A DNA stretch of 64,000 nt from Bacteroidales bacterium (GCA_016788045.1 JAEUTG010000005.1:4309-68308), one strand, 5' to 3'. Shown: positions 1-15,207, counted from the first letter of the stretch. Translations and numbers: made by a program. The notes: generated from the letters alone by a model not told the origin.

Positions 1-2
1 TT

Positions 3-1463
3 GACCCTGACAAAAATAATACAATCCTAGACCCTGCTTGTGGTACAGCAGGTTTTTTAATTTCAGCTTACAAACATATTTTACTCAAATATTCAAAAGA
101 CAACAAAGAAAATCTGAATATATTCCAGTACAACCAATTAGAAAAAAAGCCATTTAACAATCTTGGAGACCAACTTACTCCAGATGACCGTAAAAAGTTG
201 ATTCAAAATTTTACTGGTTATGATATTTCGCCAGATATGGTTCGATTAAGTTTGGTCAATTTGTATTTGCATGGTTTTAATACACCAAACATTCATGAGT
301 ACGACACTTTAAGTAGTGAGGAGAGATGGAATGAAAACACTGATGTAGTATTAGCCAATCCACCCTTTATGAGTCCGAAAGGTGGGATTCGACCCCACAA
401 GAAATTTACAATCAGTAGTAATCGCAGCGAAGTGCTTTTTGTCAATTACATTGCAGAACACCTTAATGTCAATGGTAAAGCAGGAATTATTGTTCCTGAG
501 GGAATTATATTCCAAAGTGGTACAGCCTATAAAGACTTACGGAAAATGTTGTTCAAAAATCACTTATATGCTGTTGTAAGTCTACCAGCAGGAGTTTTTA
601 ATCCTTACAGTGGTGTTAAGACTTCAATTTTACTAATGGATAAAGAATTTGCGAAACAAAGTAAAGAAATCCTATTTGTGAAAATTGTAAACGATGGTTT
701 TAGTTTGGGTGCACAACGTACTGCAGTTAAAGGTGGTCAACTAGAAAAAGCCATTAAATTAATAAAACACTTTAAGAATGGAGAAGCTGCAGAAAGCCAA
801 ATTTCACATGCCGTATTAAAAAGCCAAATTGAAAAAAATGGTGATTATAATTTAAGTGGTGAAAGGTATGTTATTAATGAATTTTTAGCAAAATCTGTTT
901 ACGAATTAGTTACAGTAGATGAAATTTGTGATTTGGTTCGAGGTAGTTCTCCTCGTCCCAAAGGAGACCCCTTATATTATGGTGGTGAAGTACCACGTTT
1001 AATGATTTCCGACATTACAAGAGATGGGATGTATACTACACCAACAACAGACTTTCTAACTGAGGAAGGCGCAAAAAAAAGCCGCCCAATGAAAAAGGGA
1101 GATGTTATAATGGCTGTTAGTGGAAATCCTGGACTTGCAACTATTTTACTTGTGGATGCTTGTATACATGATGGTTTTGTCGGTTTCAGGAATTTGGATA
1201 AAAGAATAATACCTGAATTTTTTTATTTCGTTTTAGTTCATCAAAAAGAAATAAATAGTTCACAATCAATTGGTGCTGTTTTTAAGAATTTGAATACTGA
1301 CCAAATTCGTCAGTTTAAAATACCACTTCCTCCTTTGTCTGTTCAAAAAGAGATTGTAGACGAAATAAGCACTTATCAAAAAGAAATAGAATCGTTGAAG
1401 GATGAAATTATAGAAAAAGAGAATGCAATTAATGAAACTGTTTCAAAAATTTGGGGAGTGTAA
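3..1463 (+). CDS. N6-adenine DNA methyltransferase fused to a single HsdS-type target-recognition domain (5' end lies outside the window)
   Basis: Frame 3 is open from the window edge. It carries DPACGTAGF (AdoMet motif I, nt 30-56) and NPPF (catalytic motif IV, nt 357-368). The C-terminal ~190 aa resemble one type I S-subunit TRD plus the conserved helix LPPLSVQKEIVDEI. The ORF-track start at 198 (TTG) is internal. Confidence 0.85.
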   Translation, partial: DPDKNNTILDPACGTAGFLISAYKHILLKYSKDNKENLNIFQYNQLEKKPFNNLGDQLTPDDRKKLIQNFTGYDISPDMVRLSLVNLYLHGFNTPNIHEYDTLSSEERWNENTDVVLANPPFMSPKGGIRPHKKFTISSNRSEVLFVNYIAEHLNVNGKAGIIVPEGIIFQSGTAYKDLRKMLFKNHLYAVVSLPAGVFNPYSGVKTSILLMDKEFAKQSKEILFVKIVNDGFSLGAQRTAVKGGQLEKAIKLIKHFKNGEAAESQISHAVLKSQIEKNGDYNLSGERYVINEFLAKSVYELVTVDEICDLVRGSSPRPKGDPLYYGGEVPRLMISDITRDGMYTTPTTDFLTEEGAKKSRPMKKGDVIMAVSGNPGLATILLVDACIHDGFVGFRNLDKRIIPEFFYFVLVHQKEINSSQSIGAVFKNLNTDQIRQFKIPLPPLSVQKEIVDEISTYQKEIESLKDEIIEKENAINETVSKIWGV

Positions 1464-2173
1464 TGGAGTCATTTGAACAATATCACCATTATAGTCAAAA
1501 TCTACTGATTGCACAGCATGAAGTTTCAGAGATTATCAAACATAGTTTGACACGAGGAGAAGTACGTGAAGATTTTATTATTCAATACCTAATAAAATCA
1601 ATACAAGGCTGTGCCGAATTTCTAAAAAGAGGGTTTGTCAACCTTGGAGAAGATGAACAAAGCGGTCAGGCAGATATACTTTTAGTAAAACAGTTTGCGG
1701 AATTAATTGACATTGGAAATAGGGATAATGTAATCGTAAACCCAGAAGATTGCCTCATGGTAGTTGAAGTAAAAAGTACTTTGACTGGTACGTATCTAAA
1801 TGACTTTAACAATGAAGCTAAAAAAATAAAAGAAGCTAATCCAAACGTGGTTTGTGGCATGTTTGCCTATAAAGCAGACTTGGAAAAGAAAACAATTATG
1901 AAGCGTTGCGGACATGATTTTGATTCCGAAACGAAAACTTATTTTGATTCTGGAAAAGTACCATTACCAACTTTTTACCCATACATAGACTTTATTTTGC
2001 TACTTGACAAAGTTGACGAAAATGAATTAGAAGAAGATTTAGAAATACAAGGACGAAACCAGCTATTTCTAAGAAAAAGTGTTGAGATTGAGGCAAGGTA
2101 TTTTAAAGGAACATACGACCCAGTAATAAGAAACCTTGTTGGACTTGTAAGAAGCCTTTTAATAAGAGTATAA
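1463..2173 (+). CDS. Small PD-(D/E)xK-like nuclease-fold protein, candidate endonuclease partner of the upstream methyltransferase
   Basis: The ATG at 1463 overlaps the upstream stop (TAATG at 1461-1465). The protein has GQADILLV followed by VVEVKS, which fits a D...ExK arrangement. The N-terminal TRGEVREDFIIQYL segment resembles small nucleases found next to methylases. The family assignment is from memory only. Confidence 0.6.
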   Translation: MESFEQYHHYSQNLLIAQHEVSEIIKHSLTRGEVREDFIIQYLIKSIQGCAEFLKRGFVNLGEDEQSGQADILLVKQFAELIDIGNRDNVIVNPEDCLMVVEVKSTLTGTYLNDFNNEAKKIKEANPNVVCGMFAYKADLEKKTIMKRCGHDFDSETKTYFDSGKVPLPTFYPYIDFILLLDKVDENELEEDLEIQGRNQLFLRKSVEIEARYFKGTYDPVIRNLVGLVRSLLIRV

Positions 2174-2429
2174 TTATGCCGACACTCAACAGCCACACAC
2201 ATTGCCAAGCCGCACAATCCCAAACTCAAGCCAAAGCTTGTCAAAGAGTGTGTCTGTCCCAGCCCACGGAAAGACAGAGGAAAATAAAGCACGGGCACAC
2301 AACAAAGTGTATAAATCATTGGGCGGATAGTCCTAATTTTAAGGGCGTTACACTTAATAAAATTTGTAGCGGTTTGACAGGTAAGTGCTTCGAAATGCCC
2401 AACGCTTCATACACCAACCGTTACCAGCA
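2174..2429 (+). repeat. ORF-free spacer with attC-like half-sites, ending in core site GTTACCAGCA
   Basis: GCCAAGCCGCA within 2204-2218 matches 4598-4608 exactly (11/11). AGCGGTTTG..GTGCTTCG at 2368-2392 parallels the 5' arm of the 4483-4613 element. GTTACCAGCA at 2420-2429 is the exact reverse complement of 4483-4492. Confidence 0.45.
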
Positions 2430-2471
2430 ATTTTACAACGACACATTAACTAAATAAAAACGTAAAATAAC

Positions 2472-4475
2472 ATGAATGTAGAACCAATCATTAACGCCAA
2501 GTTCAAAAGGTTTCGTGAAAAAATGGAACTAACCAATATCGCTGACGGTGTTGCATTTGAACAATTTGTAAATCACACAATTTTAACTGCACACCAACCA
2601 GATGCATTTAATGGTGACAATGAACTCTTTGAAAAAGTCAATGTGGGTGGTACAAAGGACATGGGTATTGACGGAATTGCAATAAAATTGAATGGACTTT
2701 TTATAAGAGATATTGATGAGGCAAGAGACTTGACTAAGCGACTTCCCAGAATTTCAATTGAATTCATTTTCATTCAATCAAAATATAAATCAAATTTTGA
2801 CAAAGGTGAATTCAATAATTTTTCAGATGGAGTTCGTGAATTTTTATCAGAAAAGCAAAAGCAACCTGTAAGCGAAGAAATTAAGGAACTCATAAAAATC
2901 AAAGAGTTTTTAATTAGTGAAAATGCTGTATTCAAATGGGACGATAATCCATCTGTAAGACTATACTATGTTGTAATGGGTAAATGGCACAATAGTCAAC
3001 ACCAATTAGCCCTAGCGGACACGTTTAAAGAAGACATTCTAGCTCTTAATACTTACAAAGAACCATTAATACACTTTGTTGACCATGATGGTTTTAAATC
3101 AATTCTTGATTCAAATGAAAACAACTTTGAAGTGTCAATAAATTCTATTGAAACAATGCCCTTGACATCAGTTGACTTAGTTGACAACTCTTGCGTATTA
3201 CTTTGCTACGCCAGCGAACTAAAGAAAATACTTACTACACCTGATGGTCTAATAAGGAAATCCTTGTTTGATGATAATGTGAGAGATTATCAGGGAGACA
3301 ATAGCATAAACACAGAGATAAGTAATACAATTCAGACTGAGCCACAGAAGTTTGCTCTCTTGAACAATGGTATTACAATTGTGTGTGAGAAGTATACTCC
3401 GAGCAACAGACAAATTACACTTCGAAACCCACAAATTGTAAATGGCTGCCAAACTAGTCACGTTATTTTTCATAATGCTAGTGATAACGATGTTCTATCA
3501 AGAGTTCCAATTGTTATTAAGCTAATTTCAACTAATGACTCTGAAATTACCAACCAAATTGTTAGAGGAACAAACCGGCAAAATATTGTATATGATGAAG
3601 CATTTGAGGCTACGAAAAAATTTCACAAAGACCTTGAAGACTTTATTAATGCATTATCACCGGAATATGAAAGGTTCTATTATGAAAGACGTTCAAAGCA
3701 GTATGACCATAATCCATCAATTAGTCATTTTCAAAAACTGAATTTGAGAATTATAATACAGTCTTTTATTGGCATGTTTGTGAATGAACCACACATATCA
3801 CATAGACACGAGTCAAAATTATTGGAGTTATATTCAAATTTAGTTTTTCAGGATTTTCAGTCAAAATTGCCATATTTTACTTCTGCTTTAGCATTTTATA
3901 AACTTGAGAAACTTTTTAGAGCTAACGCAATTAACAAGAAGTCATTTTATGCATTTAGAACTCACCTTCTAATGATATTTAGGGAAATTACAGGTGGAGC
4001 TAGACCAAACATTAATGTGGAGAAAATTGCAAACGAGCATAGCCAACTTGTTCTCTCTTATTTAAAGGATGAAGACAAATGCCGTCAAAAGTTCATTGAG
4101 GCTAGCGAGATATTTGAACAAGCAAGGCAACACTGGGTAATTGTTTTAAAACGTGACCAATATAGAATCAAAGACAACAAAGACTTTACTGATTTACTTC
4201 TTACAGGAATAAGAAAATCCACGACAATTACAACAGATTTGGTAGAGGACGAAAATTACAAGTATAAAGGACCCATAGTTAAAATATTTAAGGATAGATT
4301 CGGAACATATTGTGGGTTTATTGGACGTAATCCCAATGACATATTTTTTCATTCAAGTTCAGCAAAAGGTATTGACTTATTCGGTAAAGTGGGACATCTA
4401 GTTACTTACAAAGTGACAACAAATCCTAAGAATGGACAACTTATTGCCACTGATATTGACCTAGATAAAATATGA
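2472..4475 (+). CDS. AIPR-family (abortive infection phage resistance) protein with a C-terminal cold-shock/OB-like domain
   Basis: The N-terminus has MGIDGIAI...IFIQSKY (Mrr-like D...QxK). The centre has FALLNNGITIVC and QIVNGCQTSH, typical of AIPR. The last ~65 aa (GPIVKIFKDRFGTYCGFIG..DIFFHSS....GHLVTYKV) follow a CspA-like pattern. Confidence 0.8.
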   Translation: MNVEPIINAKFKRFREKMELTNIADGVAFEQFVNHTILTAHQPDAFNGDNELFEKVNVGGTKDMGIDGIAIKLNGLFIRDIDEARDLTKRLPRISIEFIFIQSKYKSNFDKGEFNNFSDGVREFLSEKQKQPVSEEIKELIKIKEFLISENAVFKWDDNPSVRLYYVVMGKWHNSQHQLALADTFKEDILALNTYKEPLIHFVDHDGFKSILDSNENNFEVSINSIETMPLTSVDLVDNSCVLLCYASELKKILTTPDGLIRKSLFDDNVRDYQGDNSINTEISNTIQTEPQKFALLNNGITIVCEKYTPSNRQITLRNPQIVNGCQTSHVIFHNASDNDVLSRVPIVIKLISTNDSEITNQIVRGTNRQNIVYDEAFEATKKFHKDLEDFINALSPEYERFYYERRSKQYDHNPSISHFQKLNLRIIIQSFIGMFVNEPHISHRHESKLLELYSNLVFQDFQSKLPYFTSALAFYKLEKLFRANAINKKSFYAFRTHLLMIFREITGGARPNINVEKIANEHSQLVLSYLKDEDKCRQKFIEASEIFEQARQHWVIVLKRDQYRIKDNKDFTDLLLTGIRKSTTITTDLVEDENYKYKGPIVKIFKDRFGTYCGFIGRNPNDIFFHSSSAKGIDLFGKVGHLVTYKVTTNPKNGQLIATDIDLDKI

Positions 4476-4482
4476 GAAATAC

Positions 4483-4613
4483 TGCTGGTAACAGCGGTTT
4501 GGCGTAATGGCGGGTGCAGTGCTTCGTATGACAGTTTTGTGCAAGGTGCAAGTGCAGTTCTTCGATTGAACCTTTGTGCTAAAAATCCGCCACTACGCCA
4601 AGCCGCAAAACGT
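4483..4613 (+). repeat. attC-like recombination-site candidate (131 bp), with its 3' core interrupted by an intron
   Basis: The arms GGTTTGGCGTAATGGCGG (4496-4513) and CCGCCACTACGCCAAGCC (4587-4604) are 16/18 complementary. The site starts with TGCTGGTAAC and ends with AAAACGT. Both arms are homologous to the 16717-16856 element. Confidence 0.6.
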
Positions 4614-5275
4614 GTATGTCTTGAATCAATAAGAACAAAACAAGTTCTTTGAGAATGTTGTATCTGAGATAGAAGATTTTATGATGTAATACAAGACTGC
4701 GGAGGTCAAGCGAAGCGATTGTCCGGGTCGGTATCACCAATCATAAAGACAGGCCTTCTGCTGACGGCTTTCAGGAGTTGTTAGCAAACCACCTTATGCT
4801 GCAAATGGCGCAAACTCCTTTTGTGGTGAACGATAAGGAAAAGGGCAGCCATGAGTTGTTCAGGTGGGGTTAAGATGAGCTGAAAAGCGTAAAATATCGA
4901 TATAAGTATCGTTAAGGCATAACTGATGTTAAAACCGGGTAATTACGTTTGTACCCTGGAAACGCCTTATAGAAAGGGCACTGCACAAGAAACCTGATTA
5001 CTGTCTTTATAGCTTCCTGAGTAAAGGTATTAGGATATTTAACTGGGCTCAGATGAGTAGTGGGTTAGTTGGGAAAAGGGACCTTTTTAGTGGGCAGCTA
5101 TAAGGTATCTACGCTTCAGGTATAAGGCATCTCCTATTCTTATCGAACACTGGCGATTGTGTATTCCATGATTTAGTAATACATTTGTAATGAAACAGGA
5201 AGAGCCGTATGAATTGAGAGGTTCACTTACGGTTCCGTGAGAACGCTGGGGTGAAACTCCCCGGCGTGATTCGAC
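4612..5275 (+). mobile_element. ORF-less group II intron (class C / attC-associated type suspected); the 5' boundary is either 4612 or 4614
   Basis: Canonical 34-nt domain V at 5202-5235 (GAGCCGTATGAATTGAGAGGTTCACTTACGGTTC: AGC triad, GAGA tetraloop, AC bulge). Domain VI-like 9-bp hairpin at 5243-5267 with unpaired A5269, 7 nt from the 3' end (...GAC). The 5' GTGTATG approximates GUGYG. No + strand ORF over 60 aa lies inside. Confidence 0.7.
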
Positions 5276-5320
5276 TAGGCACAATTATAAAAAAGCATTG
5301 CAAAAGATTAACCTAAATAT

Positions 5321-8300
5321 ATGAAAGAATTTTTGAGGAAATCTATTGAAAAGTTTATTCAGTATTTATCGCATATTCTAAATAAATTTGAATCTGATTT
5401 AGGTTCTGGAAACAATTTTAATACGCTTTCACCGACTGAGAATGCTGAGAATGTTGAAAATTATATTGATTCCTTAGATTGGGCATTAAAAAATAAAAAT
5501 AAAATAAAAAACATTGCAATTTCAGGTGCATATGGCTCTGGTAAGAGTAGTGTAATAAGAACTTTTATAAAAAGGAATAAGAATAAAGATTATAAGTTTC
5601 TTAATATTTCCCTCGCAACTTTTAAAGAACAAAAAGAGCAGTCAAATCACCAACAAAATGGTGATAATGATATTTTAAGACTTATTGAATTGAGTGTTTT
5701 ACAACAATTATTTTATCATGAAAAAGACAGAAAAATTCCTGATTCAAGGTTTAAAAAAATAAAAAGCCATAAGACACGATTCTTATTTTACTATTCTGTC
5801 GGTATTATTGCACTTTTAGTTTCTACCCTGTTTCTTATAGCCCCAGATTTCTTATCAAAATTCTACTTAATAAAAATTCCTCAAAACCTTATTCCACTAG
5901 CTCACTATACTGCCGCATCAATAACAATAATTGGTTTGTTTTTCATCATTTTCAAATCATCAAGAGCCTTAAAAAGTATAGCTATAAAAAAACTTAATAT
6001 CAGTACTGCCGAAATTGAGATTGACGGTGGAATTAGTAAATCTATTTTGAACAATCATATTGATGAGATTCTATATTTCTTTGAAGTCACAGACTATAAT
6101 GTTGTTATTATTGAAGATTTGGACAGATTTGAGCAAACTGAGGTCTTTACGAAACTACGAGAAATAAATCTTCTAATAAATAATTCAAAAAAAATCGATA
6201 CCGAAGTTGTTTTTATTTATGCAATTAAGGACGATATGTTTCTTGACAAAGACAGAACTAAGTTTTTTGATTTTATGATACCAATCATTCCGGTAATAAA
6301 TTCATCAAATTCAAATGAAAAATTATTAGAGATTGTAAAAAAGAATAGTTATAAAATTTCAACTGATTTGATAGATGATATCTCACTATTTATTGACGAC
6401 ATGAGATTACTTTATAATATTATGAATGAATATTATATCTATTCAAAGAACCTCGATTCAAAACTTGACCAAGAAAAGTTGCTGTCGATGGTTGTATACA
6501 AAAATATTTGTCCTAATGATTTTACTAAGCTAAGCGAAAATAAAGGGAATTTATTTCAAACTATTTCTAATAAATCGATTTATATTAAGGAAAGGATTTC
6601 AATAATTAATCAACAAATAGAAGAAATAAAGAAACGAATTCTTGAAGCTGAAAAATCAAAAATTTCTGATATTAAAGAATTGAGATTGATTTATATAAAC
6701 AAAATAATTGAGCAAATAATTACCAAAAAAAATTATCCTTTTAAGCAATTTTGGTTAAATAATAATGCCTACAATATAAGTTCAGTGACAGATGATGATA
6801 TTTTTTCATTATTTCTTATTGGCAACATTGAGTATTTATATGACAACTATTCTTCCCGTCAAAGTTTTATATACAAATTTGAAACAATTGAGAAACTTGT
6901 AAACCCAGACTTAACTTATAAAGAAAGGGAAGAATTAGTAGTTAATAATGCAAAAATTGACAGCTTTAAAAAACAAATATCCGAGTTAGAAAAAAGAAAG
7001 ATTGAAATTAGAAAAAGTGAGTTACGGAATTTAATATCAGATGAACTTATAATAATTAGTCAAGAATCTACTAAGCAAAGCGAGCTTATTAACATTTTGC
7101 TTAGGAACGGATATATTGATGAAAATTATTTGGATTACATTTCAATATTTTACGAGGGTAGTCTTACAAAAGCAGATTATCAATTCCTTATTAATGTGAA
7201 GATTCAAAAACCATCTGAATTCGATTATAAATTGACAAAAATTGAAAGGTTAATTGAGAAAATAAGTCTTTTTGATTTTGAGAAGGAGTATGTTTTAAAT
7301 TTCGAATTAGTTGAATCTTTGCAACAAAAACAGAATGATTTTGCGAAAAAAAATCGACTGTTCATTCAACTAAGCAATCAATCCCCAAGGTCAATAAGCT
7401 TCATTGATGGATTTATTGAAATTACTACAGACATAAAGGTTTTTATTCAGAACATTTGTGAATACTGGAATGAGATATGGACATATATTGAAACAGATTC
7501 ATTTTTTGATGATGTCAGAAAAAATAAGTACTTTATATATATAATTAAATACGCTAAAGTAGAAAATATCCAATTGATATTTAATTCACATCATGAACTT
7601 TTAAATAAAAAACCTGACTTTTTGCAAATTATTGATGACGAAAAGAAACTGAAAAGTATTATAGAAAAATTGGAGCTGAAATTTGAAAATATAAATACTG
7701 ATTCTCCCTCTTCTCTCATTGATTTTGTGTTTAAAGGAAATCATTATGTTTTAAATAGGGATATGATTGAAATGCTCCTCAAACACTATAAAAAATTTGA
7801 TGCCAGTATATTCTCCACAGCTAATTTCACGTCTATAATGACAAGTTCTCTTGCTTCCATGATTGACTATATCAGTAATAATCTTGAACAATACATAAAT
7901 TCAGTCTATTTGAAGATTGAGACAAATACAGATGAGCCGTTAGAGAACTATTTAAAATTATTGAACAATGAATCCCTCGATGAAGATTTAAAAGAAAAAT
8001 TGATTATTAAAGTAAAGACAAAAATTATCGACATCAAAACGATAAAGGATACCAATTTATGGTATATTTTATTTGAATACTCGAAGGTTTCTCCTGTGTG
8101 GGAAAATATACTTGCAAGTTTCGAAAATGAAGATAATGAATTGTCAGAAGTATTAATTGATTACTTAAATATTATTCCCAATGCTGAGGAACTTTCTTTA
8201 ATTAAAATCCCAACAAAAGTTGGTGATAAGAATGTTTTTTCAAACCTATCACGAAGTATTATTTCTGAGAATGAAATAGGTGACGAATCCTACAAATTAA

Positions 8301-8950
8301 TTACAAAACCGATTCCTTGGTGGTTTAGTGATTTAGATTTTAGTAGCATTTCCGAAAACAAGACTAAGATTCTAATAAATAATATGAAAGTAAATCCTAC
8401 AATTGAAAGTTTCAACAAAATTAAAGAGAGTCACAATGGTTTAAATATTTATTTACTTGAAAAATTCCCAAAAGAATTTATTGAAAAAATAGATGAATTA
8501 GAATTTGATGGTGATGACTTGATACTAATTTTGGAATCATCATTATTAAGTATTTCGGATAAAAAGGTTCTCTTTGAAAGATTAGATTTGGAAATTATTG
8601 ATTCTAATAGCAAAATACTATTGCTTCTTTCTCATTTTATTGGACAAAATGCTGGCTTCAATCTAAAAGACTCAACAAAACGAAAAATTCTTCTCTCAAC
8701 AGTTATACCTAGAGATAAAAGAATTGAATTATTCGTACAAAATATAGTAACTATTGATATCGATTTTATTAAATTATTTATGAATACGCTTGGTAATGAA
8801 TATTATGAAATTACGTACCAAGATAAAAAGGCAACATTAACAGACAATACTCTAAATAGAAAGTTCTTGGATAAACTGGCATCAGCTCAATATATCTCAA
8901 GCTTTTCAGAATCTAGAAAAGGACTTAGAGTTAATCATAAAAGAAAATAA
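5321..8950 (+). CDS. YobI/KAP-family P-loop NTPase, 1209 aa
   Basis: Walker A is ISGAYGSGKSS. Two hydrophobic helices (FLFYYSVGIIALLVSTLFLIAP and AASITIIGLFFIIF) are inserted before Walker B VVIIEDLDRF. The block FTKLREINLLIN...FIYAIKDDMF..RTKFFDFMIPIIPVINSSNS matches my recollection of the B. subtilis YobI family. Confidence 0.8.
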   Translation: MKEFLRKSIEKFIQYLSHILNKFESDLGSGNNFNTLSPTENAENVENYIDSLDWALKNKNKIKNIAISGAYGSGKSSVIRTFIKRNKNKDYKFLNISLATFKEQKEQSNHQQNGDNDILRLIELSVLQQLFYHEKDRKIPDSRFKKIKSHKTRFLFYYSVGIIALLVSTLFLIAPDFLSKFYLIKIPQNLIPLAHYTAASITIIGLFFIIFKSSRALKSIAIKKLNISTAEIEIDGGISKSILNNHIDEILYFFEVTDYNVVIIEDLDRFEQTEVFTKLREINLLINNSKKIDTEVVFIYAIKDDMFLDKDRTKFFDFMIPIIPVINSSNSNEKLLEIVKKNSYKISTDLIDDISLFIDDMRLLYNIMNEYYIYSKNLDSKLDQEKLLSMVVYKNICPNDFTKLSENKGNLFQTISNKSIYIKERISIINQQIEEIKKRILEAEKSKISDIKELRLIYINKIIEQIITKKNYPFKQFWLNNNAYNISSVTDDDIFSLFLIGNIEYLYDNYSSRQSFIYKFETIEKLVNPDLTYKEREELVVNNAKIDSFKKQISELEKRKIEIRKSELRNLISDELIIISQESTKQSELINILLRNGYIDENYLDYISIFYEGSLTKADYQFLINVKIQKPSEFDYKLTKIERLIEKISLFDFEKEYVLNFELVESLQQKQNDFAKKNRLFIQLSNQSPRSISFIDGFIEITTDIKVFIQNICEYWNEIWTYIETDSFFDDVRKNKYFIYIIKYAKVENIQLIFNSHHELLNKKPDFLQIIDDEKKLKSIIEKLELKFENINTDSPSSLIDFVFKGNHYVLNRDMIEMLLKHYKKFDASIFSTANFTSIMTSSLASMIDYISNNLEQYINSVYLKIETNTDEPLENYLKLLNNESLDEDLKEKLIIKVKTKIIDIKTIKDTNLWYILFEYSKVSPVWENILASFENEDNELSEVLIDYLNIIPNAEELSLIKIPTKVGDKNVFSNLSRSIISENEIGDESYKLITKPIPWWFSDLDFSSISENKTKILINNMKVNPTIESFNKIKESHNGLNIYLLEKFPKEFIEKIDELEFDGDDLILILESSLLSISDKKVLFERLDLEIIDSNSKILLLLSHFIGQNAGFNLKDSTKRKILLSTVIPRDKRIELFVQNIVTIDIDFIKLFMNTLGNEYYEITYQDKKATLTDNTLNRKFLDKLASAQYISSFSESRKGLRVNHKRK

Positions 8951-8955
8951 ATAAC

Positions 8956-9060
8956 TGTGCCTAATAAATAGGAATATAAGTGGTCTGCAAGATACATTGA
9001 GTAATAGCTTGCACTGCGCACGTGCTTCGTCCCCGATTAGCAGATGTATCAGTTTTCAAG
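8956..9060 (+). repeat. attC-like spacer, second sequence class
   Basis: It starts with TGTGCCTAA (an inverse-core-like site). It has a GATACAT/ATGTATC stem (8990-8996 and 9044-9050), the central GTGCTTCG motif, and TCGTCCCCGATT (9027-9038), which is shared exactly with 10610-10621. Confidence 0.4.
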
Positions 9061-9185
9061 TACGTGGAATTTATCCATAATTCAGTAACATTTATTAAAC
9101 AATAAAATGGAAACACTGAGATGGTCTAATCCCTTTGGACAGTATTTTGTACAAATAAAATTATTATTGTCAAAACATTCTAATA

Positions 9186-10496
9186 ATGGAACTAAGTGCA
9201 ATAGTTATAAGAGTTGATAATGATAGGATTTATTTAAGTCCGAAATCATCGATTTCTATTCAACAAACTAACATTCCAATATCACATATGACTTTTCGAA
9301 CTCAAAGAAATATTTTTTGGAAAGTTGAGTTAATTCATTTCATGCCTACCGATAAGTGTCTTAAAGTTCGTGTAAAAGAATACAATACTTTTGATATTTC
9401 AAATTTTGATAGCCAACACTTAGATGAAGAAATAGATCGTCTTATTTTTGAAAAATTAGATTGGAAAAGCCTGGAACCACTATTAACATCCTATCAGTTA
9501 AGCAAACTAAAAGAATTTGTTTTTAATTCCGATTCAGGAATAAATTCCATTATCGAATCACCGCTACCAAAAGCATATAAATTTTTCTCCAACCTTTCAA
9601 CACCTATTAATTCAGGTAATAAAGGAATTAGACCAACAATAACTACTTTGCCTGATGAATTTTTAATAAGCTTTAAAGATTCTCATTTCATTTCAGGTTA
9701 TGTTACGTTTAAGAAATTCATCAAGCAACTCGGGCAAGAACTCGACTTCCAAATTTCAAATAATTATATCTTAGAAGAGTTTGAAAATGTTAAGTCTTGG
9801 TTTGTTAGAAAACTGAAAATTAAAAAATTTAAAGTATCTGTGCTTATTACATTAACTGATGGTAAGGTAACAGAGAAAAAAGCAACTTCAAACCATATTG
9901 ATCAAATCAATCCGGAATTAATTGAAAGTATAAAGTATCAACGAACTTACGCACTTATTAAAGAGCCAAAAGAAGCGAATACAAGCAAATCACTTTACAC
10001 TTGTGATGATATTTTCAATTCTATAAATTCAGGGGACATTGAAGGGAATGTCTTTAAACAATCAGAGCAAGATATCCTTGATTTTTTTATTGGAAAAAGT
10101 ACCACCCGGAACAAAAATCAGCTTGTTTACTTATCAGGTAAAAAGCAAACAGAAAATTACAAAATAAGGTATACGTTAAATCCAAATTTTGGTTTTTTAT
10201 TTTTAATTGAAGGTGCTGAGAAAAATCATTTTGTTTGGGAATTACTTAATTCTCATGCTACGTATATTTGGAGCATTCAAAGCGGAGGAAATAAGGTTGA
10301 ATCACAGTTCAGAACAATTGAAACGATTATAAATTCAATTAAGTCGAATGGTAGAGAAAATTATAAGCGAACATATAAAGAAAATTACCAAGATTTGGAC
10401 TTCGTTTTTATGATAATTACACATGACAACATTACTTCGGAATTTGTTGATGATTTCCCAAAATGGAAGGAAAAATTAGATAAATTAGTAATATGA
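9186..10496 (+). CDS. Hypothetical protein, 436 aa, no domain recognised
   Basis: Long AT-rich ORF with an ATG start, co-directional with the neighbouring cassette genes. No motif recognisable by eye. Confidence 0.7.
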   Translation: MELSAIVIRVDNDRIYLSPKSSISIQQTNIPISHMTFRTQRNIFWKVELIHFMPTDKCLKVRVKEYNTFDISNFDSQHLDEEIDRLIFEKLDWKSLEPLLTSYQLSKLKEFVFNSDSGINSIIESPLPKAYKFFSNLSTPINSGNKGIRPTITTLPDEFLISFKDSHFISGYVTFKKFIKQLGQELDFQISNNYILEEFENVKSWFVRKLKIKKFKVSVLITLTDGKVTEKKATSNHIDQINPELIESIKYQRTYALIKEPKEANTSKSLYTCDDIFNSINSGDIEGNVFKQSEQDILDFFIGKSTTRNKNQLVYLSGKKQTENYKIRYTLNPNFGFLFLIEGAEKNHFVWELLNSHATYIWSIQSGGNKVESQFRTIETIINSIKSNGRENYKRTYKENYQDLDFVFMIITHDNITSEFVDDFPKWKEKLDKLVI

Positions 10497-10539
10497 CAAC
10501 TTTAAATTCGGAAGAATATGAAATACCTCTAATATATTA

Positions 10540-10640
10540 TACTCTTATCACTCCGCAATTTCGGTCGCAGATGAAACCAACGAACATCCGCTTACGGTGA
10601 TCCCCTTCCTCGTCCCCGATTGGTGGTTATATCAGGATAG
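10540..10640 (+). repeat. attC-like spacer, second class (weak)
   Basis: TCGTCCCCGATT at 10610-10621, followed by ..TATCAG as at 9027-9052. It has short ATCAC/GTGAT and CCAA/TTGG stems. Its boundaries are not defined. Confidence 0.3.
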
Positions 10641-10776
10641 CAGAATACATATCATCATTGAGTTGAACCAGGAAATCAGATTTACACCAGGACTTTTACT
10701 GATAACTTTTTGGTTCACAAAGATAGTTGTGTTGGAATAACCCCGCCACCCAAAGAATCGTTTTTTTTAACAGAAC

Positions 10777-10803
10777 AATCCCGCAACAGCGGGATTTTGT
10801 TTA
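10777..10803 (+). terminator. Rho-independent terminator candidate at the end of AT-rich block 1
   Basis: AATCCCGC-aaca-GCGGGATT hairpin followed by TTGTTT. Confidence 0.45.
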
Positions 10804-10925
10804 AAAGCAAAATCCCCGATGCAGGGTGATAGGGTAACCATGAAACGCTCCGATTCCGAAAGCTTTCACAACGGCAACAAAAACGCTCCGCTGTCCGTTA
10901 TCAGGAAACCCACAGACAGACTACC

Positions 10926-11978
10926 ATGAAAAAACCCAGGACGAGAAGCATGCTGAAGCTGTTACGCTACGCTTTACTTCTGGCTTTCGGTTTCCTTTTG
11001 CTGAAGGTATTTGTGCCGCGCACTTACCATGCCCCGGAGGTGCAACGGCGTGAAAGTACCAGATACTGGAACCTGACAACCGGATCGGTGATTGGCTACA
11101 CGCTGATTTCAGCAAGGGGAGAGAAAAAACCTTATCCGTTGATTTACCTGCACGGCGGGCCCGGGGTGCCTGTTTCCGATCAGCACATTCAGATGCTGTC
11201 GGCGTTTTCCGGCGATGGGTACGATGTTTACCTCTACGACCAGGTCGGTTGCGGGCAATCAGGCCTGCTTGAAGATATGGAAGCGTATACGGCCCGGCGT
11301 CACACCAAAGACCTTGAAGCGATCGTTGAAAAAACCGGCGCGGAAAAGGTCATTCTTCTCGGACAGTCGTGGGGTGCCATGCTGGCTGTGTTGTTTGCTG
11401 CCGACCATCCGGAGAAAGTTGAAAAACTGATCTTAACCGGCCCGGGTCCCATAGCGCCGGTAAAGGCGGGACTGGCCGGTGTTCCTGCCCCGGATAGTCT
11501 GCACCTGAAGAAACCGCTGATTTCAAACCGGGACGGTTTCCGGTCAACGCAAACCTTAAGAAACAGGCTTGTCGCTTTTCTGGCGACAAAATTTGGATTC
11601 AAACTGGCATCGGACAAGGAAGCCAACGGTTTTTACTATGCACTGACCAATCAAACCAACAAGGCGATGGTATGCGATACCAGCAGAGCACTGAGGGCGG
11701 AACCCGGGGTGGGCTATTATTCCTCGATCATGACCCTCAACAGTCTGGATGACGTTGAAGACCCCAGGCCAAAATTAAAGGATTCGGAAATTCCGGTCCT
11801 TCTGTTAAAAGGGCAATGTGACAATCAGGTCTGGGGGATTGTTCCGGAATACCTGGCGCTTTTCAAAAACCATGAACTGGTGATTGTTCCGGATGCAGGA
11901 CATGGAATCTGGATTGAGCAACCGGAATTTTACCTGAAGGCCATCCGGAAGTTCCTGGCTAAAGAAGCAATGCAATAA
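10926..11978 (+). CDS. Alpha/beta hydrolase (proline iminopeptidase-like) with an N-terminal membrane anchor
   Basis: HGGPG oxyanion motif, GQSWGA nucleophile elbow, and a C-terminal PDAGHG histidine motif. Confidence 0.85.
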   Translation: MKKPRTRSMLKLLRYALLLAFGFLLLKVFVPRTYHAPEVQRRESTRYWNLTTGSVIGYTLISARGEKKPYPLIYLHGGPGVPVSDQHIQMLSAFSGDGYDVYLYDQVGCGQSGLLEDMEAYTARRHTKDLEAIVEKTGAEKVILLGQSWGAMLAVLFAADHPEKVEKLILTGPGPIAPVKAGLAGVPAPDSLHLKKPLISNRDGFRSTQTLRNRLVAFLATKFGFKLASDKEANGFYYALTNQTNKAMVCDTSRALRAEPGVGYYSSIMTLNSLDDVEDPRPKLKDSEIPVLLLKGQCDNQVWGIVPEYLALFKNHELVIVPDAGHGIWIEQPEFYLKAIRKFLAKEAMQ

Positions 11979-12044
11979 CCGGTGTTTGCTTAATGGCCTG
12001 GCACCGCACCTTCAGGCCATCGGACACACGAGGGGTGGACAGGG

Positions 12045-12335
12045 TTCTGCTCCGCAATCCTTGCCAGACTGCCTGTTTGCCTGTACATACAGGTAAACAG
12101 GCGTGGGAAATATTTTCCAATCCACAATTTTCCACCAGGCGAATCCAGCTTGCCGGAATTTCAAAAAAAATCTTGCGCCTGCCCACCGAAACGCAGTGCA
12201 GGCGGGTCTTAGCGCTTGTCCCGGGAATCCGGGGTCTTTGCCTGCCTGTATGCACAGGCAGACAGGCGTGGAAATTTTTTTCTATCCGCAATCTATACTC
12301 CGCAATTTTCCACCAGGCATATCCGGGCTGTATTC
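12045..12335. repeat. Tandem pair of REP-like units (palindrome plus conserved tail)
   Basis: Palindromes GCCTGTTTGCCTGTACATACAGGTAAACAGGC (12071-12102) and GCCTGCCTGTATGCACAGGCAGACAGGC (12240-12267). Each is followed by the exact 16-mer CAATTTTCCACCAGGC (12125-12140 and 12303-12318). Confidence 0.75.
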
Positions 12336-12482
12336 ATCCATTGCACGGCTTCACCAACTTTTCCCGGGCGTTTGTCCCCTGCAGCCGCAGTTCCCCCCTG
12401 GCTTGCCTGTCGTTCTTTTCCATCCTTTTGCGAACTTTTTTTCATCTCCTGTTGTTATTTTCAGGTTCTAAAGAAAACGTTT

Positions 12483-13010
12483 ATGATGGGAAGATCTGCC
12501 TTTTTCGGACTGCTGTTTATCAGCGCCATTCTCTTTGTTTCGTGTGATAAAACCGAAAACCTGCTGCTGAGCGACAGCGAAATCCTGATGAAAGAACTGA
12601 AGGGGGTTTATACGCTGGAATCGGTGAGGCATGAGGAGTATGCCAGTGTTGACGGAGGCAATACCTGGGGTTTGTCGCTCGATACCACCTACAGCGCCAC
12701 CGGATCGCTCGACCTGAGCAACATCAGCAAGGCAGATTTCGAGGGTTCGTTGAGTATATCCTACCGGGGCAGCAGCGAAACGCACCTCATTCACGGGAAT
12801 GCCTCGGCAACCGGCGGCAATGAGAAGCTCTGGATTTATACCACCAGCGAGGAGGATATACAGTCGATGTTTCTGTTCAGTTCAGCCACTTCCATTGTGG
12901 AAGGCTGGCTTGACGAACGTGACGATTCCCACCTGCTGCTCCGCATTTCAGAAATTTCGTTCGACTATTCCGGGAGAAAAAGCCGCTATTTCAGGTTCGT
13001 AAAGCAATAG
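12483..13010 (+). CDS. Hypothetical lipoprotein
   Basis: The ATG at 12483 gives MMGRSAFFGLLFISAILFVSC, a signal peptide plus lipobox. The upstream part of the 12216 ORF runs through REP repeats. Confidence 0.65.
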   Translation: MMGRSAFFGLLFISAILFVSCDKTENLLLSDSEILMKELKGVYTLESVRHEEYASVDGGNTWGLSLDTTYSATGSLDLSNISKADFEGSLSISYRGSSETHLIHGNASATGGNEKLWIYTTSEEDIQSMFLFSSATSIVEGWLDERDDSHLLLRISEISFDYSGRKSRYFRFVKQ

Positions 13011-13042
13011 TGCTGTTCCTTTACTTCTCCCGGCAGCTCCGT

Positions 13043-13957
13043 TCACCCGTGGTAGCTGACCGCGATGGTGGCGCCCAGTGCGGCATTGCTCTTAACCAGG
13101 GCGATGTTGGAGGCGAGGCTTTCCCCTTCGGTATTCCCGGCAATGGTTTTCAGCAGGAAGGGCGTCAGGTTTTTGCCGCGGATATTCAGCTTCTCAGCCT
13201 GTTCAAGTGCTTCTTTGATCGTGACTTCCATCTGTGCATAAGGAATTTCCATGGATGCCGGGATGGGGTTGGCGATGAGCACCGATCCGCTGAGGCCCAT
13301 TTCCCATTTGGCTTTCAGCATCGAGGCAATGGCTGCCGCACTGTCGAGCCTGAGGGGTGAGGCAAAGCCGCTGTTGCGTGAATAGAAGGCCGGGAATTCA
13401 TCCTGCCCGAAGGTCACCACCGGCACGCCGCCGGTTTCGAGGTACTCGAGGGTGAGGCCGATGTCGAGGATGGACTTCACACCGGCAGAAACCACCGCCA
13501 CACTGGTTTGTGCCATTTCGGTCAGGTCGGCCGAAACATCCATACTGGTCTCCGCCCCGCGGTGCACGCCGCCGATCCCGCCGGTTACGAAAATGCGGAT
13601 GCCGGCCATGGCCGCGATGCGCATGGTGGCCGCCACGGTGGTGGCACCGGCAATATGCTTGCTGACCACGTAAGGCAGGTCGCGCAGGCTTACCTTCCAT
13701 ACTCCGCCAGAGTTTCCCAGCATTTCCAGCTGCTCCCGGTTCAGTCCGACGCAGAGTTTCCCGTCAAGCACCGCGATGGTGGCGGGGATGGCCCCGTTTT
13801 TTCTCACAATTTCTTCTACCTCCAGGGCTGTTTCAACATTCTGCGGGTAGGGCATTCCGTGGGCGATGATGGTGGATTCAAGGGCGACCAGCGGCTTGCG
13901 GGCTGCCAGCGCTTCGGCCACTTCAGGGTGGATATTCAGGTATTCGTTCTGTTTCAT
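13043..13957 (-). CDS. psuG: Pseudouridine-5'-phosphate glycosidase
   Basis: Full-length similarity to the YeiN/IndA family (VALESTIIAHGMPYP, GGIGGVHRG). Confidence 0.9.
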   Translation of the reverse strand: MKQNEYLNIHPEVAEALAARKPLVALESTIIAHGMPYPQNVETALEVEEIVRKNGAIPATIAVLDGKLCVGLNREQLEMLGNSGGVWKVSLRDLPYVVSKHIAGATTVAATMRIAAMAGIRIFVTGGIGGVHRGAETSMDVSADLTEMAQTSVAVVSAGVKSILDIGLTLEYLETGGVPVVTFGQDEFPAFYSRNSGFASPLRLDSAAAIASMLKAKWEMGLSGSVLIANPIPASMEIPYAQMEVTIKEALEQAEKLNIRGKNLTPFLLKTIAGNTEGESLASNIALVKSNAALGATIAVSYHG

Positions 13958-14097
13958 GTTATGGTTTCATTGTTGTCCGGAAAAATATTTAAAATATTAA
14001 CAGAATGCTTTACTACAGTGGGTTTCCAAAGACTTCAGTTGCACATAGCTTACTTACTGTTTTTCGTCACCAAGGCACCAAGTCACCAAGGCAGCAG

Positions 14098-14131
14098 GCC
14101 TGCCCTGTCTGCTTGCCATAGACAGGCAGGC
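14098..14131. repeat. REP-like palindrome
   Basis: GCCTGCCCTGTCT-gcttgccat-AGACAGGCAGGC. A half copy, AACAGGCAGACAGG, follows within 14161-14190. Confidence 0.6.
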
Positions 14132-14277
14132 TGTTTGCTCAATAGGAGAAATTTTTTGATTAACCCTTTATTAACAGGCAGACAGGTTGCACAAATTTAT
14201 TTTTTTCATTTAGTGTTACTTAGTGTCTTCGTGACTTTGTGGCAATTACTTTTTTTAATTTTAACCGGACAATAGTG

Positions 14278-15207
14278 TTATGGTTTGTAGTTTTTAACGG
14301 CGTCTTGAAGCATCTGCGGGCTCAGGCTGTTCAGCACAGCCCCCTGAACCCTGAGGATAAGTGCTGCCATGGCGTGGCCATGGATCACACAACGTTCGGG
14401 CGAAAGGTTCTGCAGCCAGGCATGCAGGAAGCCTGCCAGTGCGGCATCGCCGGCACCGGTGGTGTCAACAACTTCCGTGACCGGAGCCGGGAACTCCATG
14501 GCTGCTGTTGCAGAATACAGGCCAGAGCCGGATTTGCCCTTGCGTACCCAGAGGAAATCCAGGCCCCGGCCGAGCAGTTCGTTCACCTGTGGCCTGAACC
14601 CTCCGGATGCTTCCATGCCCGACAGCACCGCCAGTTCATCGAGGTTGGGGGTAAGCAGCAGCACGCCGCTGAGGTTGGCCTCTTTCAGCCGGGCAGCTTT
14701 GGGCACCGAAACAGGTTCGATGGCGCAGGGGATCTTCTCGCTGCGGCTGAAATCAAGCAGCCAGCTGAGGGCTTCGGTTCCGAGGTTGGTATCGATCAGC
14801 AGCAGGGAGGCCGACTTCAGCACGGCTGTTTTTGCTTCGAGAAAGGCAGGGGTGACCATCTCTTCAAAGCGGCAGGCGACAGCGCCGGCGAAGAGATCGC
14901 CTTCAGGAGAGAGCAGGGCGGTAAATTTCCCGGTCGGTTCGCTGTTGCGGATGGAATCCGCCAGATCAATACCGGCCTTCAGACATTCGCCGGCTAACCA
15001 ATCACCGTCGGCATCCTTGCCGAAGTGGGTGATGAGTTTTACCGGATTTCCGAGCAGTGCCAGGTGATGGGCGATGTTGCGCGACACCCCGCCGGCAGCC
15101 CGGTAGAGGGTGGCCGGGTTGGAAGTGCCGTTGAGGGGCCGGCTTTTCAGGCGGTAGGTCTCATCCACCAGCGATGCCCCGATGCAGACGATGGGTTTTC
15201 GGTTCAC
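14278..15207 (-). CDS. psuK: PfkB-family kinase, probable pseudouridine kinase
   Basis: PfkB motifs (GGVSRNIA and DTTGAGDA), and it lies immediately upstream of psuG on the same strand. Confidence 0.8.
   Translation of the reverse strand: MNRKPIVCIGASLVDETYRLKSRPLNGTSNPATLYRAAGGVSRNIAHHLALLGNPVKLITHFGKDADGDWLAGECLKAGIDLADSIRNSEPTGKFTALLSPEGDLFAGAVACRFEEMVTPAFLEAKTAVLKSASLLLIDTNLGTEALSWLLDFSRSEKIPCAIEPVSVPKAARLKEANLSGVLLLTPNLDELAVLSGMEASGGFRPQVNELLGRGLDFLWVRKGKSGSGLYSATAAMEFPAPVTEVVDTTGAGDAALAGFLHAWLQNLSPERCVIHGHAMAALILRVQGAVLNSLSPQMLQDAVKNYKP

Follow-up and report, generated by a model that had tools for sequence, protein, structure and literature searches.

Low-GC segments of a Bacteroidales chromosome as probable cassette arrays of an integron-like system

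Two low-GC segments in a 64,000-nt stretch of Bacteroidales DNA (the window) are probably arrays of mobile cassettes that belong to an integron-like system widespread in Bacteroidota, Ignavibacteria and Chlorobi. With an RM system, AbiU, Tmn and a candidate PDC-S26 as cargo, they amount to a phage-defence island assembled from cassettes; an earlier note on this DNA had called the cargo defence-like, and PADLOC bears this out. The earlier note had also read the units as integron cassettes. They are circularisable, co-oriented, promoter-proximal and bounded at G/TT by attC-like hairpins, but the term 'integron' in its strict sense fails on the defining feature, as the recombinase linked to related arrays lacks the IntI-specific domain and scores below the cutoff of the integron integrase model TIGR02249.

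Sites and cassettes in the window

Low-GC DNA fills positions 1-10725 (block 1) and 15405 to about 18200 (block 2), with 4.7 kb of conserved host genes between them (Table 1); the single array of short-gap cassettes proposed earlier is therefore not contiguous. The covariance model R1, built from the site family described below and not the canonical attC model, has four matches in the window, at sites A, B (where the match extends over 4482-4623), D and E, all on the plus strand and all in low-GC DNA. Sites A and B are 2.2 kb apart, D and E 1.1 kb. The matches recover four of five sites proposed from the sequence; the fifth, at 8956-9060, has neither a match nor a fold. The notion that spacers are GC-richer than the ORFs (0.27-0.36) holds for sites A (0.42), B (0.51), D (0.47) and E (0.51) but not for spacer C (0.33). 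A search of Rfam at the window sites returned no match, and under the canonical model the family sites may score as ordinary attC.

Table 1. Features of the window, with the evidence for each
Feature	Position	Strand	Evidence or remark
Cassette 1	1..2420	+	Start upstream of window; ends with site A
Fused type I-like methyltransferase/specificity gene, cassette 1	open 3-1463	+	Pfam, PADLOC, translation
DUF6602 PD-DExK nuclease gene, cassette 1	1463-2173	+	Pfam, PADLOC, translation
Leftover L'-arm-like stretch, cassette 1	2199-2218	+	Weak nhmmer match
Site A, attC-like	2293..2432	+	R1 57.7 bits, E = 2e-12; DNA fold
Cassette 2	2421..4612	+	Starts TTACCAGCA, 50-nt leader, ends with site B
AbiU/AIPR ORF, cassette 2	2472-4475	+	PADLOC AbiU 9e-107
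Site B, attC-like	4482..4613	+	R1 128.5 bits, E = 6e-30; nhmmer E = 5e-45
ORF-less group II intron	4614..5275 (662 nt)	+	Inserted at GT/T of site B
Cassette 3	5276..8965	+	Starts (T)TAGGCACA
Tmn / YobI-like NTPase ORF, cassette 3	5321-8950	+	Pfam YobI-ATPase; PADLOC Tmn 2e-95
Spacer C	8956..9172	+	Real R'' box retained; motif comparison
Possible cassette 4	9173..10725	+	ORF 9186-10496, R''-like TGACAAC 10494-10500, spacer F
Host block	10726..15404	.	GC 0.53; not part of cassettes
Host block genes: alpha/beta hydrolase, pseudouridine glycosidase-like, PfkB kinase	10726..15404		Pfam
Block 2 start	15405..16865	+	GTT junction 15405-15407, then cassette-type leader AGAGTAAGGCTAACAGACGACAAGAAC
PD-(D/E)XK_4 / PDC-S26 ORF	15436-16698	+	PADLOC
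Decayed site D	16716-16865	+	R1 50.5 bits, E = 1e-10
Frameshifted metallophosphoesterase gene	16887-17796	+	Sequence reading; within 16866..17961
Decayed site E	17805-17961	+	R1 47.3 bits, E = 9e-10; strong fold z = -3.6

Site A opens with the R'' box GGCACACAAC (2294-2303), followed by a long imperfect stem and the R' GTT at 2420-2422. In site B the R'' box (4483-4492) precedes the arms L'' (4494-4513) and L' (4587-4606) and the spacer AAAAC; the R' consists of G4612 and T4613, with its last T displaced to 5276. The arms are 20 nt long and complementary at 18/20 positions, and contain the 18-nt arms of 16/18 complementarity described previously. Site B has 90% identity to a site on an Empedobacter plasmid. 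The reverse-complement words around the two ORFs, on which the cassette idea had been founded, are correctly placed and exact: GTTACCAGCA (2420-2429) is the reverse complement of the site B R'' box TGCTGGTAAC at 10/10 positions, and T4613 plus TAGGCACA (5276-5283) that of TGTGCCTAA (8956-8964) at 9/9. The R'' box of cassette 3, TGTGCCTAAT (8956-8965), carries AAT in place of AAC.

Spacer C gives no R1 match and a fold z-score of only -1.9, the long stem being absent; its motifs recur in spacer F and in the last spacer of a related strain. A possible R' of spacer C, (A)TTGTCA, is present at 9166-9172 and is tentatively complementary at 6/7 positions to the R''-like box of the possible cassette 4. 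The ORF of the latter has no Pfam or PADLOC match, and spacer F has neither a fold nor an R1 match.

Block 1 ends directly before GTTGTG (10726), the position from which homology to a close relative, L123, begins. The host block is conserved at 94-98% identity in L123 and in L126, the L123 breakpoint on its far side falls at 15407/15408, and alleles at locus 15405 measure 94 nt, 573 nt and 2,882 nt among strains. L123 has no R1 match. Contrary to the expectation that relatives would vary cassette by cassette, the left block of this one close relative differs as a whole. In block 2, the AAC of site D has changed to TAC and its GTT to GCT, while site E keeps its AAC (17813-17815) and has GCG for GTT at 17949-17951; the cassette signature was not found at either site. 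These mutated GTT boxes, together with the pseudogene, suggest that block 2 is decaying.

The site family and its linked recombinase

Site B belongs to a family of conserved hairpins of about 140 nt that is found across Bacteroidota, Ignavibacteria and Chlorobi, at no fewer than 119 genome loci under a strict sequence pattern. Arrays of these sites are often co-oriented, with a maximum of seven co-oriented copies per 8 kb. Each site begins with R'' (N7-AAC) and a single A, continues with an imperfect stem of about 20 bp around a centre of about 70 nt, and closes with the spacer AAAMC and a G; the unpaired spacer is thus asymmetric (A versus AAAMC, 1 nt versus 5 nt). The main variant has its 13 + 6 bp in one continuous helix, which includes a 1x1 mismatch and a T.G that is conserved. 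The AAC and GTT ends pair in 98% of 101 family members, as expected of attC, although the core is GTTRNNN and the full RYYYAAC/GTTRRRY consensus is kept only in part. The imperfect L''/L' hairpin, another hallmark of attC, is conserved in structure: compensatory changes on both sides occur at 18/22 base pairs and 88.8% of cells pair. Covariation scores 0.393, as against 0.111 after shuffling and no more than 0.09 when the register is slid. Conserved extrahelical bases or bulges were not seen in the family alignment and structure, and wobble statistics across the family stems revealed no strand bias, so that the folded form may be either DNA strand or an RNA. The central motif reported as common to the window spacers, GTGCTTCG, is part of the family consensus.

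Plasmids of Empedobacter, Riemerella and Adhaeribacter carry family sites at 72-90% identity, and the Riemerella plasmid copies adjoin resistance genes. In Riemerella anatipestifer, aph(3')-IVb, lnu(H) and blaRATA have been named as mobile units; aph(3')-IVb moves homology-free together with 27 bp at its 5' end and 140 bp at its 3' end, the latter able to form a hairpin, by a mechanism that was left open (PMC13148043). The cassettes described here would resemble these units, in which a gene with about 27 bp upstream and a hairpin-forming element of about 140 bp downstream integrates without flanking homology. The plasmid matches suggest that the Riemerella 140-bp element may belong to the site family.

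In related loci, arrays begin at an attI-like site, about 100 nt past the end of a tyrosine recombinase gene that points the same way and whose product is akin to IntI and to archaeal XerA; it was found in five array loci. In a set of 60 metagenome loci picked by the recombinase alone, all R1 matches (59/59) are co-oriented with the recombinase and 56/59 lie downstream, with about 110 kb of DNA searched downstream and about 330 kb upstream. A GTT followed by the complement of the first site's R'' is located 69-168 nt after the recombinase gene in 21/21 loci (at most two mismatches; exact in 13), and the attI-like site carries an inverted repeat of its own. This order of recombinase, attI-like site and array is a feature of the related loci only. 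No tyrosine recombinase was found in the 64-kb window or in 21 kb of a related strain, in line with the earlier observation that the window lacks an integrase, and the array as seen in the window is CALIN-like.

Alignment with IntI1 indicates that the IntI-specific additional domain (the I2 helix region near patch III) is absent from the linked recombinase. The distance from KGxxDR to HxLRHS is 58-59 aa in 78/78 motif-matched genes, compared with 100 in IntI1 and 66 in XerD, and many of the proteins have an N-terminal extension of 100-230 aa. The match to TIGR02249 is broken into two stretches and scores 170-217 bits (cutoff 265), and the best model, NF040815 (XerA / integron integrase), is at or just under its cutoff of 220. 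The best PDB matches are XerA over its full length and IntI4 (2A3V) in two stretches.

A cassette would accordingly run from TT to G and comprise the TT, some 7-12 nt complementary to the R'' of the same cassette, a short leader, one or two ORFs and the site of about 140 nt. The array-linked recombinase, a candidate by virtue of its genomic association, would excise cassettes as circles by recombination of site with site, and the circles would then enter the attI-like site or secondary sites containing GTT. In the window strain, cassettes may have landed at two spots flanking the conserved host block, and the recombinase of this array would lie outside the window or have been lost.

It is unlikely that the window holds an ordinary integron remnant (CALIN), with standard attC sites and a classical I2-domain IntI elsewhere, the domain-less recombinase being a bystander or a separate element. 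The AAC...GTT ends, the imperfect hairpin and the G/TT crossover do constitute attC architecture; the head of the array lies outside the window, and a classical IntI might sit elsewhere in the genome. Classical integrons are also on record from Chlorobi, Ignavibacteriae and Salinibacter (PMC9024848). Against this, none of the approximately 200 loci examined has a recombinase with the IntI insertion, the domain-less recombinase keeps its fixed distance from the first boundary in every one of the 21 loci, and the arrays are one-sided. Moreover, IntegronFinder surveys find almost no integrons in Bacteroidetes despite the common site family, which suggests that neither the sites nor the integrase are caught by standard models. 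The window segments come under the definition of CALIN (at least two sites, no nearby integrase) only if one counts their sites as attC.

Sedentary chromosomal integrons and CALIN arrays with anti-phage cassettes are known from Vibrio and others (bioRxiv 10.1101/2024.07.02.601686). Shared with these are arrays in which mostly single-gene units run in one direction and an AAC...GTT hairpin closes each unit, the G/TT crossover with first bases that pair with the unit's own R'', the defence cargo and integrase-free stretches. Unlike them, the system described here has a site whose sequence is kept from phylum to phylum, whose spacer measures 1 nt on one side and 5 nt on the other, and in which no extrahelical bases stand out as conserved; its R box is 12 bp long with a fixed mismatch at +8, and its attI-like site has its own inverted repeat. 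The linked recombinase is without the IntI-specific domain, points in the direction of the cassettes and is often N-terminally extended, and the window cassettes occupy two separate chromosomal spots. The 'inverted' integrons of Spirochaetes, Chlorobi and others have intI and cassettes in one orientation, and their integrases are reported to retain the IntI additional domain. Co-orientation and hosts outside the Proteobacteria are common to both, whereas the recombinases here are devoid of that domain.

Movement of the cassettes by an unlinked enzyme, either host XerC/D, as on dif-like modules and CTX-phage hairpins, or an IS91-type element, with the array-linked recombinase serving another purpose, is very improbable. 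Xer recombination is known to act on folded or short sites such as the CTX phage hairpin and dif-like modules, and XerCD is able to recombine a folded single-stranded hairpin, which speaks for this possibility, as does a recombinase that is as close to XerA as to IntI. At one locus, L061, an IntI-like recombinase is paired with an IS91 Y2 transposase beside a site; the IS91-linked proteins are, however, a separate, shorter kind. Also against this possibility, the spacing between recombinase, attI-like site and array is fixed and their orientation is shared. A simple tyrosine recombinase without the I2 helix and a hairpin-shaped or short site are shared with Xer systems; unlike there, no dif-like 28-bp site is present, and the recombinase is array-linked rather than a housekeeping XerC/D.

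Complementarity between neighbouring sites

The cassette reading makes a prediction about adjacent sites: the first bases of a cassette should pair with the R'' at its own end. At 43 of 65 adjacent pairs, 6-7 of the 7 nt that follow GTT are complementary to the 7 nt preceding the AAC of the next site, and mean complementarity is 5.18 in adjacent pairs compared with 2.91 in random pairs and 3.06 between the ends of the same site (p = 6e-19). The two ends of one site are thus complementary at chance level. The complementarity of the R boxes reaches +12, with an obligatory mismatch at +8. This complementarity to the neighbour but not to self points to cassettes that circularise by a G/TT crossover, and the pairing of cassette starts with their own R'', first noticed at the two window ORFs, recurs in the family.

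For 45 window ORFs (200 aa or longer), the 80-nt flanks on the two sides were compared for their longest exact reverse-complement word. This is usually of 5-7 nt; six ORFs have 8 nt, one unrelated ORF has 9 nt and AbiU alone has 10 nt, so that the word match by itself is only moderately beyond chance. It gains significance from its placement directly after GTT and before AAC, and from the family-wide test. The AbiU cassette has homologues in other genomes (L208 and L209/L210) whose alignment starts at position 2420 to the base and runs into site B, and in L209 the following gene, GmrSD, has a site of its own.

Chance, or non-mobile repeats such as terminator hairpins, REP/MITE-like elements or RNA structure in 3'-UTRs, would fit the words of 8-9 nt around unrelated window ORFs and a stem covariation equally compatible with an RNA hairpin, but a terminator or RNA motif does not predict that bases following GTT pair with those preceding the next site's AAC while sparing the same site, and neither the base-exact boundaries shared by homologous cassettes in unrelated contexts nor the fixed first boundary after the recombinase gene is explained; the results argue strongly against this reading, which is barely credible.

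A group II intron in site B

The split word at 4613 and 5276 is explained by a group II intron, inserted on the same strand as the cassette genes. Its ends are 5' GUAUG and GAC 3', Rfam matches within it are RF01999 (4745-4865, 80.4 bits) and RF00029 (5200-5275, 47 bits), and no ORF of at least 80 aa was found inside. Excision in silico restores GTTAGGC. A candidate EBS1, ACGTTT (4945-4950), pairs with the exon end AAACGT, and the intron may have retrohomed into site B by recognising the hairpin and AAACGT/T. Because the intron splits the crossover point, the AbiU and Tmn cassettes should be locked together at the DNA level; its position on the coding strand could allow its removal from a read-through transcript by splicing.

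Known group IIC-attC introns such as S.ma.I2 insert into the bottom strand at R'', are antisense to the cassettes and encode a reverse transcriptase (PMC3001079, PMC7923331). The window intron shares with these its small group II ribozyme and its place at GT/T, immediately behind an attC-type hairpin, and its target would presumably be recognised through the hairpin and a short IBS1; the insertion core is AACGT/T here and TTGT/T in group IIC-attC introns. Unlike them, it occupies the top strand at R', in sense orientation and without an ORF, and neither bottom-strand insertion at R'' nor the protein of the clade is present. Rare sense-oriented cases are on record, namely a group IIC intron of Enterobacter cloacae and UHB.I2.

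Low-GC blocks and their attC-like sites

Two segments of the window, 1-10725 (the left block) and approximately 15405-18200 (block 2), have a GC content of 0.26-0.39, compared with 0.47-0.58 in the Bacteroidales host DNA, whose genes encode T9SS and BACON proteins according to domain annotation. Every ORF of both low-GC segments lies on the + strand. The arrays in these segments are probably accounted for by an integron-like cassette system with a recombinase that lacks the IntI-specific domain (I2); such a system would explain the defence island of the window as an assembly of mobile cassettes carrying phage-defence genes.

A covariance model of the site family (R1), run across the 64-kb window with filters off, returned exactly four matches, all on the + strand (table). 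The sequence-only search with nhmmer recovered sites B and D as the sole window sites, so the covariance model was needed for both A and E. The four matches are among five sites that the earlier note had proposed; the fifth, 8956-9060, neither matches the model nor folds, and retains an R'' box, TGTGCCTAAT, which is the only part of spacer C (8956-9166) that we kept as real. At sites D and E, where AAC and/or GTT are no longer intact, the cassette signature is missing; these losses and the metallophosphoesterase pseudogene suggest decay of block 2. The frameshift in that gene, near 17008, places the N-terminal DIHGH motif out of frame with the 243-aa ORF.

Genes, attC-like sites and host repeats, with R1 E-values for the sites
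Feature	Position	Strand	R1 E-value
Type I-like methyltransferase/specificity fusion gene	off left end to 1463	+	
DUF6602 PD-DExK gene	1463-2173	+	
Site A	2293-2432	+	2e-12
AbiU/AIPR	2472-4475	+	
Site B	4482-4623	+	6e-30
Tmn/YobI-like NTPase	5321-8950	+	
ORF without assigned family	9186-10496	+	
PD-(D/E)XK_4/PDC-S26	15436-16698	+	
Site D	16716-16865	+	1e-10
Metallophosphoesterase, frameshifted	16887-17796	+	
Site E	17805-17961	+	9e-10
REP-like host repeats	12067-12101, 12240-12266, 14160-14186, 18212-18238		
REP-like host repeat in related strain L123	~11500-11530		

Spacer C, spacer F (10501-10725) and the last spacer of the related strain L123 (16367-16612, - strand) were rejected as family sites, having neither an attC-like hairpin fold nor an R1 match. 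They represent a second spacer type with TAATAAATAG[GT]AATATAA and CTTCGTCCCCG[AG]TT in common, and follow different genes in the two strains. A CA-rich stretch 3' of the DUF6602 stop (2174-2292) is ~60% similar to L123 17990-18085 (- strand); within it, especially at 2199-2218, CATTGCCAAGCCGCACAATCCC resembles a leftover L' stem arm of another site.

Hairpin and cassette signature of the site family

A BLAST search of plasmids with 4483-5320 as the query yielded a match of ~125 nt at 72-90% identity on Empedobacter, Riemerella and Adhaeribacter plasmids, positioned just 3' of the upstream gene and in the same orientation wherever that gene is annotated. A strict pattern of the conserved 3' half matches at least 119 genome loci in Chitinophagales, Cytophagales, Flavobacteriales, Sphingobacteriales, Bacteroidales, Ignavibacteria and Chlorobi, and in this search the family reaches every class of Bacteroidota. 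A profile built from these loci found 226 copies, with a maximum of seven co-oriented copies per 8 kb. The sites share the layout N7-AAC, A, an arm of ~20 nt, a centre of ~70 nt with GTGCTTCG-type motifs, the matching arm, AAAMC and GTT-R, where the end boxes ending in AAC and starting with GTT correspond to R'' and R', respectively.

A helix model consisting of AAC/GTT, 13 bp and 6 bp was tested on 101 non-redundant copies. Overall, 88.8% of cells are paired, two-sided changes occur in 18 of the 22 pairs, and the covariation score of 0.393 exceeds those of column shuffles (0.111) and slid registers (no more than 0.09); pairing and covariation therefore show that the site hairpins are under structural selection. 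No bulged bases are conserved in the family. The spacer between R box and stem is asymmetric (1 nt versus 5 nt), and a count of strand asymmetry among wobble pairs gave 107 top-only and 100 bottom-only cases. At both thresholds, Rfam assigned no family at the sites and matched the intron alone.

If crossover occurs at G|TT as in integrons, the bases following GTT should complement those preceding AAC of the next site. The 65 adjacent pairs match on average at 5.18 of 7 bases, and 43 of them at 6-7 of 7; the corresponding mean is 3.06 when the two ends of a single site are compared and 2.91 when pairs are drawn at random (p = 6e-19). This shows the signature of crossover at G|TT between neighbouring sites. 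In the window, sites A and B match at 10 of 10 bases, and site B and the R'' box at 8956 at 9 of 9; the words that the earlier note had quoted are exact reverse complements where it placed them. Reverse-complement words alone are not rare, since a 9-mer also surrounds one unrelated window ORF; the weight of the argument is carried by the position of the matches and the family statistics, not by the word match alone. Complementarity extends to +12 after GTT, with position +8 (2430 versus 4482 in the window) complementary in a fraction of only 0.02 among the genome loci L004-L122, which indicates a fixed, conserved mismatch. The R box of a circularised cassette would pair across ~12 bp after GTT.

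The linked recombinase and comparison with integrons

The window contains no tyrosine recombinase, as the earlier note had said of integrases. Among the genome loci, five arrays adjoin an IntI-like recombinase. The array-linked set was defined without the recombinase of locus L061, set aside because an IS91 Y2 transposase is its partner, and without that of L112, which like L061 has no N-terminal extension. In L061 (3026-5174, - strand), the IS91-family Y2 transposase and the short IntI-like recombinase are inserted directly beside a family site. All of these recombinases lack the IntI-specific domain, a gap that is seen in the alignment with IntI1; TIGR02249 matches them in two stretches and under its cutoff, and their closest solved relatives are archaeal XerA, which aligns over the whole length, and IntI4, which aligns in two parts. 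At E <= 1e-40 the family comprises some 8,000 members or more, which databases name 'site-specific tyrosine recombinase/integron integrase' or XerD.

To this were added 80 metagenome loci fetched by recombinase alone. In all 78 recombinase genes that match the motif pattern, 58-59 aa stand where IntI1 has 100. R1 was run on the 60 longest loci; all 59 matches are co-oriented with the recombinase and 56 lie downstream of it, where the loci hold about one-third as much DNA as upstream. These data show that the cassettes are physically linked to the domain-less recombinase. Many of the metagenome contigs (L127-L206) stop 100-400 nt past the recombinase, as expected if assemblies break at repeated sites.

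At 69-168 nt after the recombinase gene, 21 of 21 loci contain GTT followed by the complement of the first site's R'' (exact in 13). In the metagenome loci, TATAWRYWA directly precedes the crossover GTT of this attI-like region, and many loci have an upstream inverted repeat, so that the insertion site itself looks hairpin-like, in contrast with classical attI. In many of these loci the repeat spans 15-18 bp around a ATACACCCA...TGGGTGT core. The related loci amount to a full platform of recombinase, attI-like site and array, in that order. The domain-less recombinase would excise and insert cassettes, and those of the window would have been inserted at or beside GTT-containing sites; the junction at 15405, tgtgtgtatatttgaac|GTT, resembles the attI-like consensus.

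The main rival explanation, which we regard as improbable, is an ordinary integron whose classical IntI lies out of view. Apart from the IntI-specific domain, every genomic hallmark of integrons is present. The reading of the ORFs as integron cassettes in the earlier note holds for integron-like working and genomic hallmarks, but strict membership fails on the domain and on the curated model TIGR02249. More tentatively, and with slightly less than even confidence, we propose that the window may be an instance of an uncharacterised integron-like platform common in Bacteroidota, Ignavibacteria and Chlorobi, combining a co-oriented IntI/XerA-like integrase without I2, a hairpin-bearing attI-like site ~100 nt downstream, cassette arrays with sequence-conserved sites of ~140 nt, and an intron apparently adapted to the AAACGT/T end.

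The results point to a large parallel system in these bacteria. Beyond In0 elements, IntegronFinder surveys of Bacteroidetes found just one complete integron (PMC9024848). Single-strand hairpin recombination is considered to have become possible once the I2 helix had been acquired (PMC7790495). If our reading is true, cassette capture by hairpin sites does not need this helix, a feature thought to define integron recombination, and the near-absence of integrons from Bacteroidota is explained. A 2026 paper described homology-independent capture of Riemerella aph(3')-IVb with a 140-bp hairpin-forming tail by a mechanism called unknown (PMC13148043); family sites are present on Riemerella plasmids, and the proposed system would explain such homology-free capture of resistance genes. 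We found no published description of such a system in a literature coverage that is incomplete, and an earlier account may exist. Three questions now become open to direct test: what allows recognition of hairpin sites when I2 is missing, whether the lineage is ancestral to integrons or convergent, and whether this system is the route of resistance-gene uptake in Riemerella and related bacteria.

The intron in site B and cassette junctions across strains

The second match in the earlier note was split between 4613 and 5276, and the gap proves to be a group II intron, placed on the cassette crossover point. Rfam identifies group II intron domains at 4745-4865 (80.4 bits) and 5200-5275 (47 bits), and deletion of 4614-5275 fuses ...AAAACGT with TAGGCACA, whereby GTTAGGC is regained. 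The intron (662 nt, GUAUG...GAC) shares the strand of the genes and has no internal ORF of 80 aa or longer. A candidate EBS1, ACGTTT at 4945-4950, is complementary to the exon end AAACGT (IBS1), modest evidence because a 6-mer has a chance expectation of ~0.16 per 662 nt. Known IIC-attC introns insert into the bottom strand at TTGT/T of R'', antisense to the cassettes (PMC3001079, PMC7923331), whereas the window intron sits in the top strand at the mirror-image position, AACGT/T of R'. It appears to be adapted to the conserved AAACGT/T site ends. No relatives were found across all fetched loci, and plasmid BLAST matches to the intron are restricted to domains V-VI. Its presence would stop recombination at site B, while splicing from transcripts may still occur.

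AbiU homologues with 80-97% amino acid identity occur in unrelated contexts. The cassette junctions suggested at this gene were borne out: in L208 and L209/L210, loci with homologous cassettes, DNA homology starts exactly at 2420 (the first base of the GTT of site A) and stops within site B. This shows that cassette boundaries are common to different genomes at base level. The next cassette after AbiU in L209 encodes GmrSD and has a site of its own. Many AbiU homologues are on contigs of 2.1-2.4 kb, roughly as long as the 2,192-nt cassette.

Strains 97-98% identical to the window retain the host block 10726-15407, and the alleles at 15405 measure 94 nt in L126, 573 nt in L123 and 2,882 nt in the window, with GTT as the breakpoint. 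Cassette-wise variation, which the earlier note had expected between related strains, was not seen in the left block: to the left of 10726, L123 carries other genes and no R1 matches, so that the block differs as a whole. The 21 kb of L123 contain no recombinase and no R1 matches, and the left block therefore allows no cassette-by-cassette comparison. Where the window has the left block, L123 encodes an SMC_N/AAA_15 ATPase, two small genes and a 567-aa reverse transcriptase (RVT_1) at 18085-21281 (- strand), which could be another defence set or the maturase source for the ORF-less intron. REP-like palindromic repeats of the form GCCTGCCTG...CAGGCAGACAGG also occur in conserved host DNA and at the right-hand border of block 2.
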